A DNA stretch of 52,264 bases from Candidatus Tayloriibacteriota bacterium (GTDB lineage: Bacteria; Patescibacteriota; Minisyncoccia; Phycocordibacterales; CAIRYW01): positions 1 through 52,264 of the forward strand of contig JAQBQZ010000003.1 of NCBI GenBank assembly GCA_028286725.1, written 5' to 3'. Positions 4,355-23,921 of the stretch are shown here, in pieces (the stretch's first letter is position 1; every line of letters starts with the position of its first letter). A program made the position numbers and the translations under genes. The notes beneath the pieces were generated by a model. The model worked only from the letters and a program-made list of their open reading frames with translations. It was not told the DNA's origin and searched no databases.

Positions 4355-4363
4355 AAGTAAAAG

Positions 4364-4563
4364 GGTTCGATCCCTACCGGTGTTGCCAAATAAAAAAATC
4401 ACAGCATTTGCTGTGATTTTTTTATTTGGCGACACCGAGCAAGTGCGGGACACTTGCGTGTAGGGATCGAAAACCTTTTGAGCATAATTTGCGAATCTTT
4501 GAAGCAAATTATCCAAAAGGTGTACTGATCCTGTAAGGATCGATATCCCTACCGGGGGAGCCA
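4364..4563 (+). repeat. tRNA-3'-end-mimic composite repeat, copy 1
   Basis: Core 4438-4552 nearly identical to 5404-5518; starts GGTTCGATCCCTAC-CGGTGTT-G-CCA and ends ATCCCTAC-CGGGGGA-G-CCA. Confidence 0.9.
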
Positions 4564-4596
4564 CTAAAAATACCCTTATTTTATATGGGTGTTTTT

Positions 4597-4621
4597 TGAT
4601 ACCAGAGGAGGGGATCGAACC
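4597..4621 (-). pseudogene. Isolated tRNA 3' fragment, tRNA-Leu-like (GGTTCGATC-CCCTC-CTCTGGT-A-TCA)
   Basis: T-loop, 5-nt T-stem strand, 7-nt acceptor strand and discriminator; no 5' half upstream. Confidence 0.5.
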
Positions 4622-4767
4622 TAAAATATTCTAAGTGTAATTGACTTTATGTATAACCGTGATATTGTAAATTTATAAAGTTCATTGAATTTGGAGAGAG
4701 TTTGAGTTTAAGGTGGAAGAAAAAAAGTAATTATTTATTGTTTTTCTTTCATCTTAAACACCACATC

Positions 4768-5094
4768 ATGAAAACAGCATACATCAGCATCCTCCTCATT
4801 GTGGCTCTGTCCACACAAGCCGTCGCCGACACATCCTATCTGAAAATAATCAAAGAAACTCCTTACTCACCTACGGTGATTTTCGGTAAAACTTTGATGG
4901 ATGGAGGCGTGAATACTTCTGCACAAGGACTCGCATCAGCGGGTGAACCTGGAGCCGAAGCGTTGACCAAATGGGAGAGAGCAAACCCAGATAAAGAGAT
5001 TGTTGCTGTGACAGCTCATAGCGCATCTTCCAACAACGACAGCACCTTCGTGCTCTACGGCTTCTGGATCACCTGGAAGTCTCGTGTGAAGTAA
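4768..5094 (+). CDS. Hypothetical secreted protein
   Basis: ATG at 4768 gives a Sec signal (MKTAYISILLIVALSTQAVA|DT); upstream TTGACT promoter and downstream hairpin. Confidence 0.7.
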   Translation: MKTAYISILLIVALSTQAVADTSYLKIIKETPYSPTVIFGKTLMDGGVNTSAQGLASAGEPGAEALTKWERANPDKEIVAVTAHSASSNNDSTFVLYGFWITWKSRVK

Positions 5095-5236
5095 CTCTCT
5101 CCACTTCTCCTTCGTCCCCTCACCTTTGGCAACATTGGTGGGGTCTTTTTATTTCAACTCCTGTACATAAAAACTCTCATTACTCCTCACCCAAGTTCCA
5201 ATCGAATCGACGAGTCGGAGCAATATTCAAAGCGCT

Positions 5237-5264
5237 TTGCAAAAATCTACTTTTTTGATACTAT
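5237..5264 (+). promoter_or_regulatory. tRNA-Asn promoter
   Basis: TTGCAA-N16-TACTAT with TGn extended -10, 12 nt before the tRNA. Confidence 0.6.
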
Positions 5265-5275
5265 AGTCCGAGTAT

Positions 5276-5347
5276 TCCCCTGTAGCTCAGCGGTAGAGCA
5301 ATCGACTGTTAATGGATTGGTCGTAGGTTCGATCCCTACCGGGGGAG
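5276..5347 (+). tRNA. tRNA-Asn (GTT)
   Basis: Acceptor TCCCCTG/CGGGGGA, D-arm GCTCAGCGGTAGAGC, anticodon loop CT-GTT-AA, T-arm GTAGG-TTCGATC-CCTAC; one G-G mismatch in anticodon stem; followed by CAA, not CCA. Confidence 0.9.
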
Positions 5348-5529
5348 CAAAATACAAAAACACCAGAGAATATTCTGTGGTGTTTTTGTATTTTGCTCCC
5401 CCGAGCAAGTGTGGGGCACTTGCGTGTAGGGATCGAAAACCTTTTGAGCATAATTTGCGATTTTAAGAAGCAAATTATCTAAAAGGTGTACTGATCCTGT
5501 AAGGATTGATATCCCTACCTCCGTAGCCA
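5326..5529 (+). repeat. tRNA-3'-end-mimic composite repeat, copy 2 (uses the real tRNA-Asn 3' end as its left arm)
   Basis: Same order of modules as 4364-4563; ends ATCCCTAC-CTCCGTA-G-CCA followed by a terminator-like hairpin. Confidence 0.9.
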
Positions 5530-5659
5530 AAAATCACTTTGTTTTACAAGGTGGTTTTTTATTAATTTTATTTAAGTTCGAACTTAATATTTAAATAAAA
5601 AATCGCAGAGACCAGAGTCTCTGCGATGTGCATACGAGTTGATGTTGGAGGAGATTGCC

Positions 5660-13348: not shown

Positions 13349-15244
13349 CTATAAAAGACTCGCCGGACTCGCATCAATTTTTACATTCGGCGGAAAAGTA
13401 AGAAGAATATCGAGAAGCTCCTTGTTTGGCCACTCTTCCTTTCCAAGTTTGATAATAATATTTAGAATAATATTTTTATTTCTTGATTTGATAAATGCAG
13501 GGAAAATAACAGGATTATATTTTTTGATCTTAGTAATGATTTGTTCTGCGTCGAGTTTGATCTGATCCTTCTTGCCTTCGATCGAGAGTTTGATGATATG
13601 TTTAAAAGGTGCATATCCAAATGTCTCTCGAGCCTTAATCTCTTCGTTTGCAAACCCTTCCAAGTCGCCCGAAAGTGCTTGTTCTATAACCTTATTTTTG
13701 AGGTTTCGAGCTTGAATGAGGATCATTTCTTTGGTCTTTGATTTAAGGTCGAGAATTATATGCATTATCCGTTCACTTGTTCGAAAATCAGGAAGTGAAA
13801 GGAGACTATCGAGCGACGTGATCGCAGAAAAATCAACGGAATAATCCTCGAGATATCTAATTCCAAGATCAGTTGTTACGAGCACATTTCCTGTTTTATA
13901 AAATGTTTCCATTTTATTTTTGATTTCTTTTGCAGTTTTCGAATTGTCGCTATCTATTCGAATAACACTAGCTCCATTAATTGCTTTGATTTCTTCTTCT
14001 ATTTTTTCGATACCGATACCGAGCGGAACAAAGTTCCAGCTATTACAAACTTTACAGTTTTCGTCTGCGTCTTTGCTTTTGCCGCAGTGATGACAAATAA
14101 ATATTCGCTTGTCGGAAATTGTATGGAGTACAAATGGACTCTCGCAGATGTCACAAAGTACTGTGGTGCCACAGTCATTACAGACTGTCTGGGATGCGAC
14201 TCCGCGCCTAGTTGCATAAAGAAGTATTTTTTTACTGCTTTTGATTCCGTATTCGATCATCTCTCGGAGATCTGAACTTAGAACTTCAAACTTCTTTTTC
14301 TCTCCCTCTTTTGGCTTGGTATCAACAAGGAGTGTCTGGATCTTCCGGGCAGTTCTCTTTTCGATCCGTGCATATTCGACAATCCTAGCTTCACGCATCT
14401 CCGCAAGAGTCTGTACGCTCAAAAGCTTGTCTCCAAATATGAGCCGGGCTCCTAGCTCTTTTGCGATTTCTTTGGCTGATACGCGAGTATCAAGAAATGG
14501 TCGCTTCTTGTTCTTATAAAACGCTGAAGATTCCTCTTCGAGAATAATGGTGCCTACAGAATGATTAAGAAGTGAAAGCATATATGCGGTGCCAATAAAA
14601 AGCTCTGCATGTTTTTTGGTGTTAATTGATTTTGAGAATTCTTCGAGATTTTTCTTTGAATTAGGATTGTGGAGCGTGACTGTGTATTCAATAATTCCTT
14701 TTGAGAGAAGCTCTTTCATTTCACTTATTCTCTCTATGGTAGGGCAGATGATCGCGATTGATTTTTTCTTTGCGAATGATTCTCTGATGAGGCTTCGGTA
14801 TGTGTCCATTCGAGCTTCGTTGTGGAGCTGGACTGCAAGCACCTCAAGTGAAATTTCTTTGTTCAGTCTTTGCTTCACAGCGCCACTTTCTCTTTGGAAA
14901 AATATTTTTGGATTTTCAAAACAAATTTTTGGCACGAGTGATGCGAGTGTGCTTCCGATGCTTGTTGCAGAGTGTATCGATATTTTTTCAGCAGCATTCA
15001 TGAGAAATTCTGGCAGTGCAACTTTGTTATCAAAATCAACAATCTTTTTGATTGTGAATTTCATATCTTTGATCGCAGATTTGTTCTGCATTGCATCGAG
15101 TGACTCGAGCACGATCCCCGGCACCTCTTTTTTGCGAAGGGGAATGGTAACGAGCGATCCTGCGACAATATCTTTTGTCGAAAAGTAGGTAAGCGTCTCC
15201 TTGCGGATGCCTCGAGCTATGGGGACTATGGATAAGAGTCTCAT
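13349..15244 (-). CDS. priA: Primosomal protein N' (PriA), helicase motifs degenerate
   Basis: N-terminal 3'-DNA-binding domain (LTY...G.LV.IPLRKK), four CxxC, LLSLPDFRTSER, GYAPF; no recognisable Walker A/DEAH. Confidence 0.85.
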   Translation of the reverse strand: MRLLSIVPIARGIRKETLTYFSTKDIVAGSLVTIPLRKKEVPGIVLESLDAMQNKSAIKDMKFTIKKIVDFDNKVALPEFLMNAAEKISIHSATSIGSTLASLVPKICFENPKIFFQRESGAVKQRLNKEISLEVLAVQLHNEARMDTYRSLIRESFAKKKSIAIICPTIERISEMKELLSKGIIEYTVTLHNPNSKKNLEEFSKSINTKKHAELFIGTAYMLSLLNHSVGTIILEEESSAFYKNKKRPFLDTRVSAKEIAKELGARLIFGDKLLSVQTLAEMREARIVEYARIEKRTARKIQTLLVDTKPKEGEKKKFEVLSSDLREMIEYGIKSSKKILLYATRRGVASQTVCNDCGTTVLCDICESPFVLHTISDKRIFICHHCGKSKDADENCKVCNSWNFVPLGIGIEKIEEEIKAINGASVIRIDSDNSKTAKEIKNKMETFYKTGNVLVTTDLGIRYLEDYSVDFSAITSLDSLLSLPDFRTSERIMHIILDLKSKTKEMILIQARNLKNKVIEQALSGDLEGFANEEIKARETFGYAPFKHIIKLSIEGKKDQIKLDAEQIITKIKKYNPVIFPAFIKSRNKNIILNIIIKLGKEEWPNKELLDILLTFPPNVKIDASPASLL

Positions 15245-17273: not shown

Positions 17274-18287
17274 ATGTCATTTTTTACTCGAAAAATAGGG
17301 ATCGATCTTGGGACAGCAAATACGCTCGTGTTCGTACCTGGCCGCGGAATCGTTTTGAACGAACCATCTGTTGTGGCTGTTTCTGAATCAGAGAACAAGA
17401 TTCTTGCAGTAGGACTTGAAGCAAAAGAAATGATTGGTAAGACTCCTGACAATATTATTGCGTACCGTCCAATGAAAGATGGGGTGATCGCTGACTATCG
17501 TGTGACTGAAGCGATGCTTCGGTATTATATTTCAAAAGCGCTCGGCAAATGGAATTTTATTCGTCCAGAAGTGATGATCTCAGTTCCTGCTGGCGTAACT
17601 TCAACAGAAAGACGAGCAGTGATCGAAGCTGCGGTCAAAGCAGGAGCCAAAAATGCATTCGTGGTGAAGGAGCCTATTTTGGCTGCGATTGGTGCAGGTA
17701 TTTCGATTCAAGAACCTTTGGGTCACATGATCGTTGATGTGGGAGGAGGTACGACAGATGTTGCGGTGATCTCGCTTGGAGGGATTGTTGCGTCGACTTC
17801 GGTTAAATGTGCAGGTAACAGAATTGATGCGGGGATCATAGACTATATGAAAAAGCATTATAACCTTATGGTGGGAGATAAGACTGCGGAGGATATCAAA
17901 ATCGGTGTTGGATCAGCTATACCGATGGATGAAGAACTCATAATGTCAGTCAAAGGACGAGATTGTCTTTCTGGACTTCCACGATCTGTTGAGGTTAAAA
18001 CAAATGAGATCGTTCGAGCGATAGGCAAAGAGCTTCGAGAAATGATCCAAGCGATCAAAGATGTGCTTCAAGAAACTCCACCAGAACTCGCATCAGATAT
18101 TATCGATCAGGGTATTACAATGACTGGAGGCTCTTCCCAGCTTCGAAATCTTCCAGAACTAGTATTTAGACGAACGGGAGTAAAGGCGAAGCTTGCTGAG
18201 AATGCGCTTTTTTGTGTAGCGATGGGAACAGGGATTGCACTTGAACACCTTGAAACATATAAGAAAACAGTCATCTCAAAGCGTTAG
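17274..18287 (+). CDS. mreB: Rod shape-determining actin MreB (paralog 1)
   Basis: IGIDLGTANT, RPMKDGVIAD, VDVGGGTTD, TGGSSQL. Confidence 0.95.
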   Translation: MSFFTRKIGIDLGTANTLVFVPGRGIVLNEPSVVAVSESENKILAVGLEAKEMIGKTPDNIIAYRPMKDGVIADYRVTEAMLRYYISKALGKWNFIRPEVMISVPAGVTSTERRAVIEAAVKAGAKNAFVVKEPILAAIGAGISIQEPLGHMIVDVGGGTTDVAVISLGGIVASTSVKCAGNRIDAGIIDYMKKHYNLMVGDKTAEDIKIGVGSAIPMDEELIMSVKGRDCLSGLPRSVEVKTNEIVRAIGKELREMIQAIKDVLQETPPELASDIIDQGITMTGGSSQLRNLPELVFRRTGVKAKLAENALFCVAMGTGIALEHLETYKKTVISKR

Positions 18288-22853: not shown

Positions 22854-23921
22854 ATGGCATTCAAATTTCTACAAAAATTCTACGCAATGTTCTCAAATGA
22901 TATCGGGATCGACCTCGGTACTGCAAACACTCTTGTGTATGTGGAAGGTAAAGGTATTGTCGTGCGTGAGCCATCAGTTGTAGCGCTCAATCAAAAGACG
23001 GGGCAGGTAGTAGCGGTAGGAAGCCAAGCTAAAGACATGCTCGGCAAGACTCCTGGCCATATTATCGCTATTCGGCCAATTGTTGATGGTGTGATTTCGG
23101 ACTTTGAAGTAACTGAAGAAATGATGTCATATCTCATCAATCGAGCAGAAGGCGACAACAAAAAAATGCTCGGTCCTCGAGTGGTTGTAGGTGTGCCATC
23201 AGGCATTACAAACGTTGAGAGACGAGCCGTACGAGATGCAACAGTGAATGCTGGTGCGCGAGAAGTTCATATTGTTGAAGAGCCAATGGCTGCAGCAATC
23301 GGTATTGGAGTACCAATCAATGATCCGGTAGGAAATATGATTGTGGACATTGGCGGTGGCACAACGGATATTGCGATTATTTCTTTGGGTGGAATTGTTC
23401 ATTCTCGAAATATCAAGATCGCAGGAGATAAGCTCAATAATGACATTACACAGTTTCTAAAAAATGAGCTCAAGATTCTTATTGGAGAAAAAACTGCGGA
23501 AGATATCAAAATAAATATTGGAAGCGTACTTGATACAGATTCTGGTGGAGAGATGGCGGTTCGAGGACGAGATCTTATCACGGGACTTCCTCGAGAAGTG
23601 GTGATTACTGAATCAGATGTGCGAGATGCGATCGCAGGATCTATCAATACACTCATCGAATCGATCAAAGAAGTGATCGAGATTACTCCGCCTGAAGTTG
23701 TGTCTGATATTATGCATCGTGGACTTCACTTGGCAGGAGGCGGAGCGCTCATTCGAGGAATGAAAGAGCTTCTTGAAAGTGTGCTCAAGATCCCTGTTCA
23801 CGTTGCTGAAGATCCGCTCACAGCAGTTGTGCGAGGAACAGGAATAATCCTAAATGATATTGATGCGTATCAGGATGCGCTAATTAAAAACGAAGATGAG
23901 TTACCTTTTACACGCAACTAA
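22854..23921 (+). CDS. mreB: Rod shape-determining actin MreB (paralog 2, in mre operon)
   Basis: DIGIDLGTANT, VDIGGGTTD, AGGGALIRG. Confidence 0.96.
   Translation: MAFKFLQKFYAMFSNDIGIDLGTANTLVYVEGKGIVVREPSVVALNQKTGQVVAVGSQAKDMLGKTPGHIIAIRPIVDGVISDFEVTEEMMSYLINRAEGDNKKMLGPRVVVGVPSGITNVERRAVRDATVNAGAREVHIVEEPMAAAIGIGVPINDPVGNMIVDIGGGTTDIAIISLGGIVHSRNIKIAGDKLNNDITQFLKNELKILIGEKTAEDIKINIGSVLDTDSGGEMAVRGRDLITGLPREVVITESDVRDAIAGSINTLIESIKEVIEITPPEVVSDIMHRGLHLAGGGALIRGMKELLESVLKIPVHVAEDPLTAVVRGTGIILNDIDAYQDALIKNEDELPFTRN

Follow-up and report, generated by a model that had tools for sequence, protein, structure and literature searches.

Folded elements matched to the 3' ends of neighbouring tRNA and tmRNA genes in Patescibacteria

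What is a sequence that is built from sense and antisense pieces of a tRNA 3' end, and that occurs twice around a single tRNA gene? In the window (the whole 52 kb stretch of DNA analysed), two copies of such an element were found, both at one locus: E1 (4364-4623) and E2 (5326-5566), ~200-260 bp each, with the window's sole tRNA-Asn between them. E1 starts 10 nt past the stop codon of an M14 peptidase gene. Every part that the initial annotation had described was recovered in both copies and in the order claimed, as follows (the T-arm and hp1 strands were read directly from the sequence).

4364..4388, plus strand: E1 segment X, a tRNA 3'-end fragment belonging to repeat family D2 and consisting of GG, TTCGATCCCTAC (T-loop and T-stem 3' strand, 4366-4377), the upstream tail CGGTGTT (4378-4384) and GCCA (4385-4388)
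4378..4437, plus strand: E1 long hairpin H0, inverted repeat I2 with arms 4378-4406 and 4409-4437 (29 nt, 97% complementary), pairing the tail, GCCA and a bidirectional terminator-like stem with their own exact inverted copy
4431-4437, plus strand: E1 antisense tail GACACCG, the 3' end of the H0 inverted copy
4439..4457, plus strand: E1 hairpin hp1, GCAAGTG CGGGA CACTTGC, whose stem covaries across the family
4460..4471, plus strand: E1 antisense T arm GTAGGGATCGAA, the complement of TTCGATCCCTAC and 5' strand of the closing stem P1 (repeats I4 and I11)
4465..4544, plus strand: E1 conserved core, matched by covariance model R1 at 98.4 bits and supported by covariation counts; its parts are the junction CGAAA, P2/P3 (ACCTTTTG..CAAAAGGT around ATAATTTGC..GCAAATTAT), GTACT and P4 (GATCCT GTA AGGATC)
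4545..4563, plus strand: E1 segment X' (D2), the sense partial T-arm copy ATCCCTAC (P1 3' strand, 4545-4552), the tRNA-Asn tail CGGGGGA (4553-4559) and GCCA (4560-4563)
4564..4597, plus strand: E1 second terminator-like hairpin and T run, with homologues behind E2 and behind the closest relative's copy
4598..4623, minus strand: antisense tRNA-3'-end-like fragment, GGTTCGATCCCCTCCTCTGGTATC on that strand (inverted repeats I3, 73%, and I8)
4768..5094, plus strand: small ORF between E1 and E2, 108 aa, with a signal-peptide-like N-terminus and no Pfam family
5276..5348, plus strand: tRNA-Asn (GTT), detected by ARAGORN and by Rfam (tRNA, 60.5 bits), CCA not encoded
5340..5403, plus strand: E2 long hairpin H0, inverted repeat I1 with arms 5340-5371 and 5372-5403 (32 nt, 97%), pairing the tRNA-Asn tail, trailer and terminator with their own inverted copy
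5397-5403, plus strand: E2 antisense tail TCCCCCG, the 3' end of the H0 inverted copy
5405-5423 and 5426-5437, plus strand: E2 hp1 and antisense T arm GTAGGGATCGAA (repeat I10)
5431..5510, plus strand: E2 conserved core (P2/P3, GTACT, P4), an R1 match of 97.9 bits
5511..5529, plus strand: E2 segment X', ATCCCTAC (5511-5518), CTCCGTA (5519-5525) and GCCA (5526-5529)
5529..5566, plus strand: E2 second terminator (predicted terminator 5529-5559, with a 14-pair stem and T run), near-identical to that after the relative's copy

The two copies are 88% identical over a gapless 147 nt and 93% identical from hp1 through the closing stem, in keeping with the near-identical cores first reported. A 37-mer of the core occurs exactly twice in the window and not once in 100 shuffles, and TTCGATCCCTAC is present four times (two sense and two antisense) against 0.13 expected. 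The swapped acceptor-like tails are likewise real, running from CGGTGTT to CGGGGGA in E1 and from CGGGGGA to CTCCGTA in E2, and E1 begins without a 5' tRNA half, neither ARAGORN nor Rfam detecting a tRNA there. The locus's sole intact tRNA is tRNA-Asn, whose T-loop, T-stem 3' strand and tail are segment X of E2. In E1, hp1 interrupts the antisense copy precisely at the boundary of its T-stem and acceptor strands, and the element as a whole has imperfect terminal inverted repeats (4364-4393 versus 4592-4621, 73% over 30 nt); counterparts of its antisense fragment at 4598-4623 were also found in L004, L007 and L030. The distal tail of E2, CTCCGTA, pairs neither with the tRNA-Asn 5' strand nor with the E2 antisense tail, and resembles the tail of copy L007 (TCCCGTAGCCA). 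The 108-aa ORF has no similarity to the ORF at the equivalent position in the closest relative and is probably unrelated cargo or host sequence.

The initial annotation had allowed for a duplication restricted to this locus, a possibility that gives way to an element family found in several Patescibacteria genomes. Pattern scans returned ten further distinct copies, all in Saccharibacteria/Patescibacteria assemblies, and exact-pattern scans returned four genome loci and eight metagenome loci, all named hosts being Saccharibacteria/Patescibacteria; an extra tmRNA-linked copy was recovered from an SmpB neighbourhood. One copy (L003) is truncated, and one metagenome copy ends 10 nt upstream of an ORF without a Pfam family. 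Searches of the window and eleven loci against Rfam 15, at gathering and at permissive thresholds, gave no family matching the element; the matches that passed were to tRNA, tmRNA and group I intron only, and microRNA and C0719 matches on the element were discarded as below-threshold artefacts of the long hairpin. Phage and plasmid BLAST gave no matches to the element, and a viral origin was rejected, as the thirteen viral contigs that share a 17-mer with it do so by chance and none matches the covariance model. A covariance-model search found no additional copy in ~250 kb of related DNA, the more distant M14 neighbourhoods (L050, L051) had no synteny, tRNA or element, and full-text literature searches yielded no description of such an element. 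As far as searched, the family is undescribed, low-copy and limited to Patescibacteria (Saccharibacteria and relatives).

A three-way junction, closed by P1 and carrying P2/P3 and P4, forms the conserved core, and the fold lies on the tRNA-sense strand. In the family alignment 97.5% of cells are paired and six pairs have changed on both sides; none of 500 shuffles reached any of the five measures used, and slid controls collapsed. The covarying helices are hp1, the outer part of P3, P4 and P1, with the hp1 stem appearing as GCAAAGCG/CGCTTTGC, GCGAAGTGC/GCACTTCGC, GCAAGCTAT/ATAGCTTGC and GAGACAT/ATGTCTC. The tRNA-sense strand has 11 G.T pairs versus 2 C.A, and the covariance model scores the window copies at ~98 bits on the plus strand versus ~22 on the minus strand. 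Covariation together with this strand-specific wobble marks the core as a conserved structured RNA, with the qualification that a folded single-stranded DNA would leave a like signal. Across distant lineages the 80-nt core scores 77-101 bits with compensatory changes, P2/P3 and the GGUGUACUG junction being invariant.

Predicted folding energies extend the structure beyond the core. The regions 4360-4600 and 5276-5566 fold with z = -15.0 and z = -12.5, respectively, the H0 helix displacing the tRNA cloverleaf in the latter. Copies L007 (z = -6.95) and L001 (z = -6.07), taken alone, are each predicted to fold compactly, closed at the end by a stem of 7-9 bp with CCA or ACA behind it; E1, E2 and L006 are unable to form this end stem, P0. 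A hammerhead or other self-cleaving ribozyme was rejected after comparison by eye of the junction strands CGAAA / GUACU / GAU, there being no CUGAUGA between the right helices, as were a permuted or two-piece tmRNA and a permuted tRNA, none of which ARAGORN detects.

The pieces surrounding the core are not the generic tRNA mimics first proposed; they reproduce the 3' end of the very gene they adjoin, in sense and in antisense. Six copies lie directly behind an intact tRNA-Asn, tRNA-Met or tmRNA gene (including E2 behind tRNA-Asn; L001, L030 and L006 behind tmRNA; and L008 behind tRNA-Met). In all six, the two antisense segments flanking hp1 match the neighbour's own T-loop, T-stem and tail, and the core is closed by part of that 3' end repeated in sense. 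Five different T-loop/T-stem sequences are matched in this way across the family, including GTAGGGATCGAA with tRNA-Asn TTCGATCCCTAC in the window and L004, GGGGGAATCGAA with tmRNA TTCGATTCCCCC in L001 and L030, GGGAGATTGAA with tmRNA TTCAATCTCCC in L006, and GGTGGGACTTGAA with tRNA-Met TTCAAGTCCCACC in L008. As to whether copies always adjoin tRNA ends, most do adjoin a tRNA or tmRNA 3' end or a fragment of one, but E1, L007 and L002 have only a fragment beside them and no intact gene, an orphan 3' fragment replacing the gene in E1 and L007. In L005, L010 and L011, all from metagenomes, the matching trio of segments shows no resemblance to tRNA.

The same comparison accounts for the apparent rotation of the tails, because the antisense tail matches the upstream tail in every copy and the distal tail need not do so. 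A distal repeat of the T-stem 3' strand is always present; the tail is repeated too in L001, L004 and L008, but not in E1, E2 or L006, and direct repeats of the gene 3' end flank the insert in L008 (14/15 nt), L001 and L004. No source for the odd tails was found in the window or the other loci examined. A strong terminator separates gene from element in the window, L001, L004, L006 and L030; L008, flanked by tRNA-Met and tRNA-Asp within a tRNA cluster, is not preceded by a terminator. No convincing promoter of the element's own was found. A riboswitch was set aside as a general reading because the window copies are boxed in by terminators.

The closest relative has the arrangement M14-DUF347-tRNA-Asn-E, with one copy, behind tRNA-Asn, and no element following the M14 peptidase gene. 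A group I intron and additional 5' fragments of tRNA-Asn are also present at its locus. E2 is as far from the relative's copy (93% identity) as E1 is from E2 (93%), and identity between window and relative is 90-93% for the core and second terminator, with the first terminator diverged. The initial annotation had suggested a single crossover within ATCCCTAC, which leaves the tails unexplained: a comparison with the relative's copy shows a mosaic, E2 sharing its P3 loop and second terminator with the relative, and E1 its P2 3' strand, tail and downstream architecture. One Campbell-type crossover in the core was rejected for the same reason, no single breakpoint fitting the SNPs. Such SNP mosaics point to exchange, more than once, between E1 and E2. 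Copies behind tRNA-Asn and behind tmRNA share an identical P3 loop, GATTTTAAGAA, and their cores are 84% identical; the same core behind different tRNA-type genes, together with the absence of E1 at the equivalent place in the relative, points to movement between tRNA 3' ends having happened. Among the loci compared, none gave a clean filled/empty pair from which exact boundaries could be read.

On balance we tentatively favour, at slightly less than even confidence, a non-autonomous module that goes with tRNA-type genes (tDNA) and has passed from one tRNA/tmRNA 3' end to another. In its canonical form the element shares the strand of the tRNA or tmRNA gene and comes directly after the gene's terminator. 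There the antisense acceptor tail, with discriminator and trailer, lengthens the terminator into the 26-32-bp hairpin H0, which hp1 follows; the antisense T-stem/T-loop pairs with the distal sense partial T arm as P1, closing the three-way junction, and the element ends with tail, (G)CCA and second terminator. Insertion would prefer the 3' ends of tRNA-type genes, with rare moves made by an enzyme encoded elsewhere, a recombinase or transposase presumably acting in trans, and the conserved fold on the tRNA-sense strand may be put to use by that enzyme or by the RNA of the element itself. The three neighbour-derived segments would be kept matched by copying between repeats, the antisense copies perhaps through hairpin-templated correction and the direct copy through gene conversion. 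Template switching at quasipalindromes is a mechanism described in the literature, and we infer that it homogenises the copies together with gene conversion. In the window, E2 would be the counterpart of the relative's single copy behind tRNA-Asn and E1 an additional copy that has an orphan 3' fragment of its own, patches exchanged between them yielding the rotated distal tails.

A tRNA-targeting module of this kind had been anticipated in the initial annotation, and the family, the tracking of neighbours and the movement uphold that part of the proposal; the single crossover and the tyrosine integrase envisaged with it find no support. As had been noted, no recombinase gene is encoded in the window, and none lies beside the other copies examined. 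A tyrosine integrase is not indicated, the sole recombinase seen at such a site in the group being a large serine recombinase, whose island inserts upstream of the element and not together with it. In sister strains a serine-recombinase island occupies the tmRNA end behind which the element also sits; in L045 the island's crossover falls in TCCAC of that end and leaves the downstream element untouched, so the element does not behave as the attachment site of a large serine recombinase. A proposed homology between the element's right end and an island arm was rejected (score 18 versus 15.7 +/- 2.2 for shuffled sequence). The distal copy of L001 ends in ...TCCACATCAA, like the junction made by a serine-recombinase island.

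The genes concerned, tmRNA, tRNA-Asn and tRNA-Met, are the kind of sites that mobile DNA uses. Cis-mobilisable elements are deletion derivatives of genomic islands that keep only the attachment ends, and like them the element has no gene inside its insert. In the Islander database, islands in tRNA and tmRNA genes are recognised by a regenerated target and a displaced fragment (PMC4383910). The element resembles such islands in its choice of sites and in having an intact gene at one end and a direct partial 3' copy, beginning within the T-loop, ~190 bp away. An intact gene stands at one end of E2, L001, L030, L006 and L008, and not of E1, L007 or L002. Unlike islands, the element has no integrase, its ~190-bp insert containing no credible ORF, and it adds an exact antisense copy of the 3' end and a covarying folded core; nor is the distal fragment in the window a displaced original, as its tail does not fit the tRNA 5' strand. 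It also departs from MITEs in that many dispersed copies are lacking (two in the window and none more in ~250 kb of related DNA); the E1 ends are 73% complementary over 30 nt, but the end sequences vary with the neighbouring gene and there is no fixed-length target duplication. Integron attC sites and the CTX phage attP are similar in that a sense and an antisense strand rebuild a double-stranded target copy as a hairpin and in that structure is kept more than sequence, but the element has no integron integrase or Xer context, is only ~200 bp and cargo-free, and holds the resident gene's own end in its hairpin.

Several observations count against a mobile module: no enzyme is linked to any copy, copy number is low, and the segments of L005, L010 and L011 are not tRNA-like. 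On the same side stand the want of a clean filled/empty pair, the score of the right end against the island arm, which lies within the shuffled range, and an orientation independent of GC skew. The antisense copies are not made by ordinary integrase chemistry, so the mobile reading needs an extra assumption. The tmRNA position in three lineages and the tRNA-Asn position in two could equally reflect vertical inheritance under selection, and the conserved core beside a diverged first terminator fits a selected RNA as well as recent transfer.

These points lead to the main, if less likely, alternative: that the element is a functional, vertically inherited structured RNA derived from the tRNA/tmRNA 3' trailer, either a tRNA-like small RNA or a processing or regulatory element. 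P0, P1 and the (G)CCA end might be processed by RNase P, RNase Z and the CCA-adding enzyme, or the antisense arms might pair with the neighbour's 3' half, for example to create a site for RNase III or to retain the tRNA. The covariation, the G.U pairs confined to the sense strand, the invariance of P2/P3 and its junction in distant lineages, the terminator after the element, the low copy number and the far better preservation of the core than of the flanking first terminator between window and relative all speak for such an RNA, as do the L008 copy in its tRNA cluster and the compact predicted folds of L007 and L001 with their CCA/ACA ends. Element orientation is also always that of the tRNA and not of GC skew, which on the fold strand is positive in the window and L027 and negative in L001, L030, L043 and L045; a lagging-strand bias was rejected on this ground. 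The trailer position and the acceptor-like and T-like stems with CCA recall the tRNA-like domain of tmRNA and the 3' external transcribed spacer sponges, yet here an 80-nt junction replaces the T-loop, D and anticodon arms are missing, the end stem is missing in several copies, and Rfam holds no match. Also telling against a trailer RNA are the strong terminators preceding the element, the want of a convincing promoter, the inability of E1, E2 and L006 to form P0, and the occurrence of one core behind different genes, with truncated and orphan copies. Moreover, the joint transcript is predicted to lose the tRNA fold at equilibrium, and this loss of the cloverleaf to the long helix on read-through argues against a simple benefit to the tRNA.

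It is improbable that the element places itself by base pairing, a split ~20-nt guide (RNA or folded single-stranded DNA) formed by the antisense tail and antisense T arm either side of hp1 picking a T-arm-plus-tail, with distal X' as end signal and the three-way junction as handle for a putative Patescibacteria enzyme encoded elsewhere. Two guide-like segments around a covarying hairpin match five neighbours exactly, the sense-antisense-sense arrangement recurs in the non-tRNA-like L005, L010 and L011, and an antisense tail that never differs from the neighbour while the distal tail may is expected if a guide reads the upstream flank. Precedents exist in IS200/IS605 and IS110. At IS200/IS605 ends an internal guide of 4-5 nt pairs with the flanking target, these elements following the replication strand, and IS110 bridge RNAs carry guides beside hairpins. 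With IS200/IS605 non-autonomous derivatives and REP/REPIN sequences the element shares small size, intergenic position, strand specificity, compensated hairpins, an internal segment pairing with the flanking target and a lack of classical terminal repeats and target duplications; its complementarity is ~20 nt rather than 4-5, its copy number is low, it has no link to the replication strand or lagging-strand template, and no Y1 transposase was seen with the copies, so that it falls outside the IS200/IS605 and REP types. With the IS110 bridge RNA or seekRNA it shares a folded non-coding RNA whose hairpin-side guides match the insertion target, but it has no DEDD recombinase gene beside it and no second loop that matches its own ends, and, in contrast to the guides of a bridge RNA, its two antisense segments are complementary to a single strand. 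No partner enzyme was found near any copy, and the match could arise after insertion by copying between repeats.

Still less probable is that successive integrases acting at tRNA-Asn left behind a functionless accumulation of displaced 3' fragments and attachment-site scars. The tRNA 3' fragments in both orientations (4364-4388, 4545-4563, 4598-4623 and 5511-5529), the 5' fragments and intron at the relative's locus, the serine-recombinase island at the tmRNA 3' end adjoining another copy and the island-like end of the L001 distal copy are consistent with such a history, but scars would preserve neither the 80-nt core, with its bit scores and compensatory changes across distant lineages, nor antisense versions that match each neighbour exactly, and the covariation already speaks for selection on the fold. 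That the locus is a simple tandem duplication, or an assembly error at the repeat, is scarcely credible: independent short-read Logan contigs from one sample, the same as that of the window, do break within the repeat (L029 ends at window position 4494 and L013 begins at 5431) and the 966-bp spacing of E1 and E2 makes a loop in the assembly graph, but the copies differ at scattered positions and in flanks and tails, E1 is no closer to E2 than E2 is to the relative, the family is present in other genomes, and any linear path crosses the loop in which the only tRNA-Asn lies, the window arrangement being the sole linear path through such a repeat graph.

Patescibacteria genomes are tiny and contain little non-coding DNA. 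A conserved, folded element of 130-260 nt that is absent from RNA libraries and has neighbour-matched segments is unusual in genomes so compact, the more so as it sets three segments to match whichever tRNA or tmRNA gene precedes it. If mobile, it would be a minimal, enzyme-free module that finds tRNA 3' ends, and would point to a targeting mechanism or partner recombinase undescribed in the phylum. If an RNA, it would represent a novel trailer RNA associated with tRNA and tmRNA genes, in hosts whose RNA processing is poorly known. Either way, it provides a concrete covariance model for a census, and it explains assembly breaks and local rearrangements beside tRNA genes in these metagenome-assembled genomes.

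Annotation with ARAGORN and Rfam identifies a single real tRNA at this locus, flanked by two copies of a folded element, E1 and E2, spaced 966 bp apart:

4364-4623, E1, first copy of the element
4768-5094, open reading frame of 108 aa between the copies
5276-5348, tRNA-Asn(GTT)
5326-5566, E2, second copy of the element

The sequence agrees part by part with the initial annotation of 4364-5566, including the near-identity of the copies (88% over 147 ungapped bases; 93% from hairpin hp1 to the closing stem) and the swapped tails, CGGTGTT to CGGGGGA in E1 and CGGGGGA to CTCCGTA in E2. Each copy begins with a T-loop, the 3' strand of a T-stem, a 7-nt tail and GCCA (GCA in the real tRNA), followed by an inverted repeat of 29 or 32 nt (97% complementary) that holds a terminator-like hairpin and ends in an antisense tail. 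Then come hp1 (GCAAGTG/CACTTGC), the antisense T arm GTAGGGATCGAA and two hairpins, with ATCCCTAC, a different tail, GCCA and a terminator at the distal end. An antisense tRNA-3'-end-like fragment at 4598-4623, previously overlooked, gives E1 imperfect terminal inverted repeats. Chance origin of the repeats is excluded, as a 37-mer of the core occurs twice (none in shuffles) and a T-arm 12-mer four times (0.13 expected). Misassembly is an unlikely explanation; contigs assembled from short reads of the same sample (SRR13312974) end inside the repeat, L029 at 4494 and L013 at 5431, and the number of 966-bp units is that of the assembly alone.

The 108-aa reading frame has a signal-peptide-like start and its own promoter-like site (TTGACT, 16 nt, TATTGT), matches no Pfam family and bears no similarity to the 95-aa reading frame at the same position in the closest relative. 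The anticodon stem of the tRNA-Asn (5302-5318) carries a G.G mismatch (ATCGA / TGGAT), where the relative has C and perfect pairing. Just past the E2 terminator, at 5574-5585, lies the palindrome AAGTTCGAACTT with a T-loop-like TTCGAA inside; the equivalent place in E1 and in the relative holds an antisense tRNA-like fragment.

Searching for the core in other genomes, as had been proposed, established the element as a family of 12 distinct copies, in which diverged members are under-sampled because collections were scanned by exact words. One core 22-mer found four loci among species-representative genomes, all in Saccharibacteria/Patescibacteria assemblies; another found eight metagenome contigs (six distinct), and one more copy came from an SmpB neighbourhood. 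The element matched nothing in Rfam 15 or in phage and plasmid collections, and all viral 17-mer matches failed the covariance model. Applied to the window and to about 200 kb of related DNA, this model detected no additional members, so the family is low-copy.

An intact gene lies directly upstream of six copies:

E2: tRNA-Asn
L004 (= L027, the closest relative): tRNA-Asn, split by a group I intron
L001 (= L036): tmRNA
L030: tmRNA
L006: tmRNA
L008: tRNA-Met, within a tRNA cluster

The expectation that copies adjoin tRNA ends thus holds in part: E1 and L007 are preceded by an orphan 3' fragment, L002 by a tail alone, the L003 copy is truncated, and L005, L010 and L011 have segments at the corresponding positions that do not resemble tRNA. 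These non-tRNA copies keep the same three-part layout of upstream sense, antisense and downstream sense segments. The decisive feature is the antisense T arm, whose sequence in each case reproduces the T-loop and T-stem of the gene next to it:

Antisense T arms and the neighbouring gene sequences they copy
GTAGGGATCGAA, neighbour TTCGATCCCTAC
GGGGGAATCGAA, neighbour TTCGATTCCCCC
GGGAGATTGAA, neighbour TTCAATCTCCC
GGTGGGACTTGAA, neighbour TTCAAGTCCCACC

The antisense tail likewise reproduces that gene's tail together with its discriminator and trailer; complementarity starts at T54, and hp1 falls precisely on the boundary between T-stem and acceptor. A second repeat type that also puts an antisense tRNA 3' end first (GGGAATCGAAAGG, a long hairpin, then CCAGGGTCGAGAAATTTTTGGAGTGGCTGACGACAAAAATGTTCTTGAC, which resembles a promoter -35 region) occurs at L001 3595-3700, L003 2780-2880 and L002 3945-3975.

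The core comprises a junction strand CGAAA(G/A), a long stem P2/P3 (ACCUUUUG...CAAAAGGU around AUAAUUU...AAAUUAU), the invariant GGUGUACUG and P4, a 6-bp stem with a GUA loop that occurs in seven versions:

GATCCT/AGGATC
GACCTT/AAGGTC
GTTCGT/ACGAAA
GAACCT/AGGTTT
GAAACT/GGTTTC
GCTCCT/AGGAGA
GATCGT/ACGATC

Over the 12 copies 97.5% of cells are paired, with both-sided changes at six pairs; none of 500 shuffles reached any of the five measures, and the signal is lost when partners are slid. Covariation extends to hp1, outer P3 and the closing stem P1. Across the family the tRNA-sense strand has 11 G.T pairs versus two C.A, indicating that this strand folds, as RNA or single-stranded DNA. L007 and L001, whose tails match, fold on their own into end stem, hp1, P1, P2/P3 and P4 (z = -6.95 and -6.07, respectively); the window copies fold without the end stem.

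Two pairings hold in all copies: antisense tail to upstream tail, giving helix H0, and antisense T arm to the partial T arm downstream, giving P1. A matching downstream tail is present in L001, L004, L007 and L008; that of E1, E2 and L006 does not match, and in L006 its two flanks (T-stem and terminator) duplicate those of the tmRNA. The downstream piece of E2 differs from that of E1 and the relative chiefly in five bases (TCCGT versus GGGGG) within otherwise conserved flanks, and its tail resembles that of L007. Resemblance to the relative is distributed as follows:

P3 loop: E2
second terminator: E2
P2 3' strand: E1
tail: E1
antisense fragment, promoter and small reading frame downstream: E1

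In this three-way comparison P4 is common to E1 and E2 only. Repeated exchange between E1 and E2 fits this patchwork better than the single crossover in ATCCCTAC suggested initially.

The window has ordinary chromosomal gene content (mreB/mreC, penicillin-binding proteins, Mur ligase, aminoacyl-tRNA synthetases, dnaB, recR, priA) and, as already noted from the sequence, lacks a recombinase, with no integrase or transposase among its genes. Two MreB paralogues (17274-18287 and 22854-23921), with MreC and two penicillin-binding proteins, give this small-genome Patescibacteria lineage a complete rod-shape set. A weak match of the PriA-like protein (13349-15244, 3' DNA-binding domain) to a Cas12f1-like TNB zinc-ribbon model most probably reflects the zinc ribbon of PriA itself and not a nuclease.

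The M14 peptidase encoded upstream of E1 is 77% identical to that of the relative. Gene order is M14, E1, 108-aa reading frame, tRNA-Asn, E2 in the window and M14, DUF347, tRNA-Asn fragments, intron-bearing tRNA-Asn, one element with Asn tail, antisense fragment, promoter, 95-aa reading frame, glyoxalase, DUF1697 in the relative, which has no element behind M14. From these orders, the single copy in the relative corresponds to E2, and E1 is additional. Identities are 93% for E1-E2, 93% for E2-relative and 90.5% for E1-relative; the first terminator is strongly different in the two genomes, yet a near-perfect palindrome in each. The relative's tRNA-Asn locus is a rearrangement hotspot, with a group I intron in the anticodon loop (RF00028, 69.5 bits; L027 12120-12730 = L004 7360-7960, minus strand) and two extra tRNA-Asn 5' fragments upstream, each beginning TTCCCCTGTAG.

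Mobile DNA does use these 3' ends in this group. Assemblies with identical SmpB are polymorphic, some having tmRNA-element-SmpB and others a 6.1-kb island (large serine recombinase, MerR-like protein, HNH nuclease, DNA methylase) between tmRNA body and element. The island, at L045 5215-11300, crossed over within TCCAC, the last bases of the Saccharibacteria tmRNA, and its recombinase reading frame runs into the junction. The element is unchanged in island-bearing assemblies and is therefore not part of the island; the likeness of its right end to the island arm was not significant.

The favoured reading, held tentatively, is that the element is a non-autonomous module, rarely moved by an enzyme encoded elsewhere. 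Islands in tRNA and tmRNA genes are defined by a direct repeat of the gene's 3' end (PMC4383910), which the element carries in part, the T-stem 3' strand being repeated in every case and the tail in some copies; it differs in having no integrase, in its size of only about 190 bp and in its antisense copies, which are not products of integrase chemistry. Among the loci compared there is no exact filled/empty pair. The main alternative, somewhat less favoured, is a selected trailer RNA; it is supported by the sense-strand wobble pairs, an orientation that always follows the gene and not GC skew, the low copy number and the strong conservation. The joint transcript of tRNA-Asn and E2 is predicted to form a long helix in place of the cloverleaf (z = -12.5), so no benefit of the element to the tRNA is obvious. 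A more novel and less probable reading has the split antisense segments serve as a guide that picks the insertion site; pure accumulation of scars is unlikely.

If the element is such a module, copying between repeats would keep its three neighbour-derived segments matched, one step possibly being template switching, which is known to occur in imperfect palindromes (PMC7202029), and the other gene conversion between direct repeats. A core with identical loop sequence follows tRNA-Asn in one set of genomes and tmRNA in another; with the truncated and orphan copies, this leads us to consider movement between the 3' ends of tRNA-type genes over evolution as shown.
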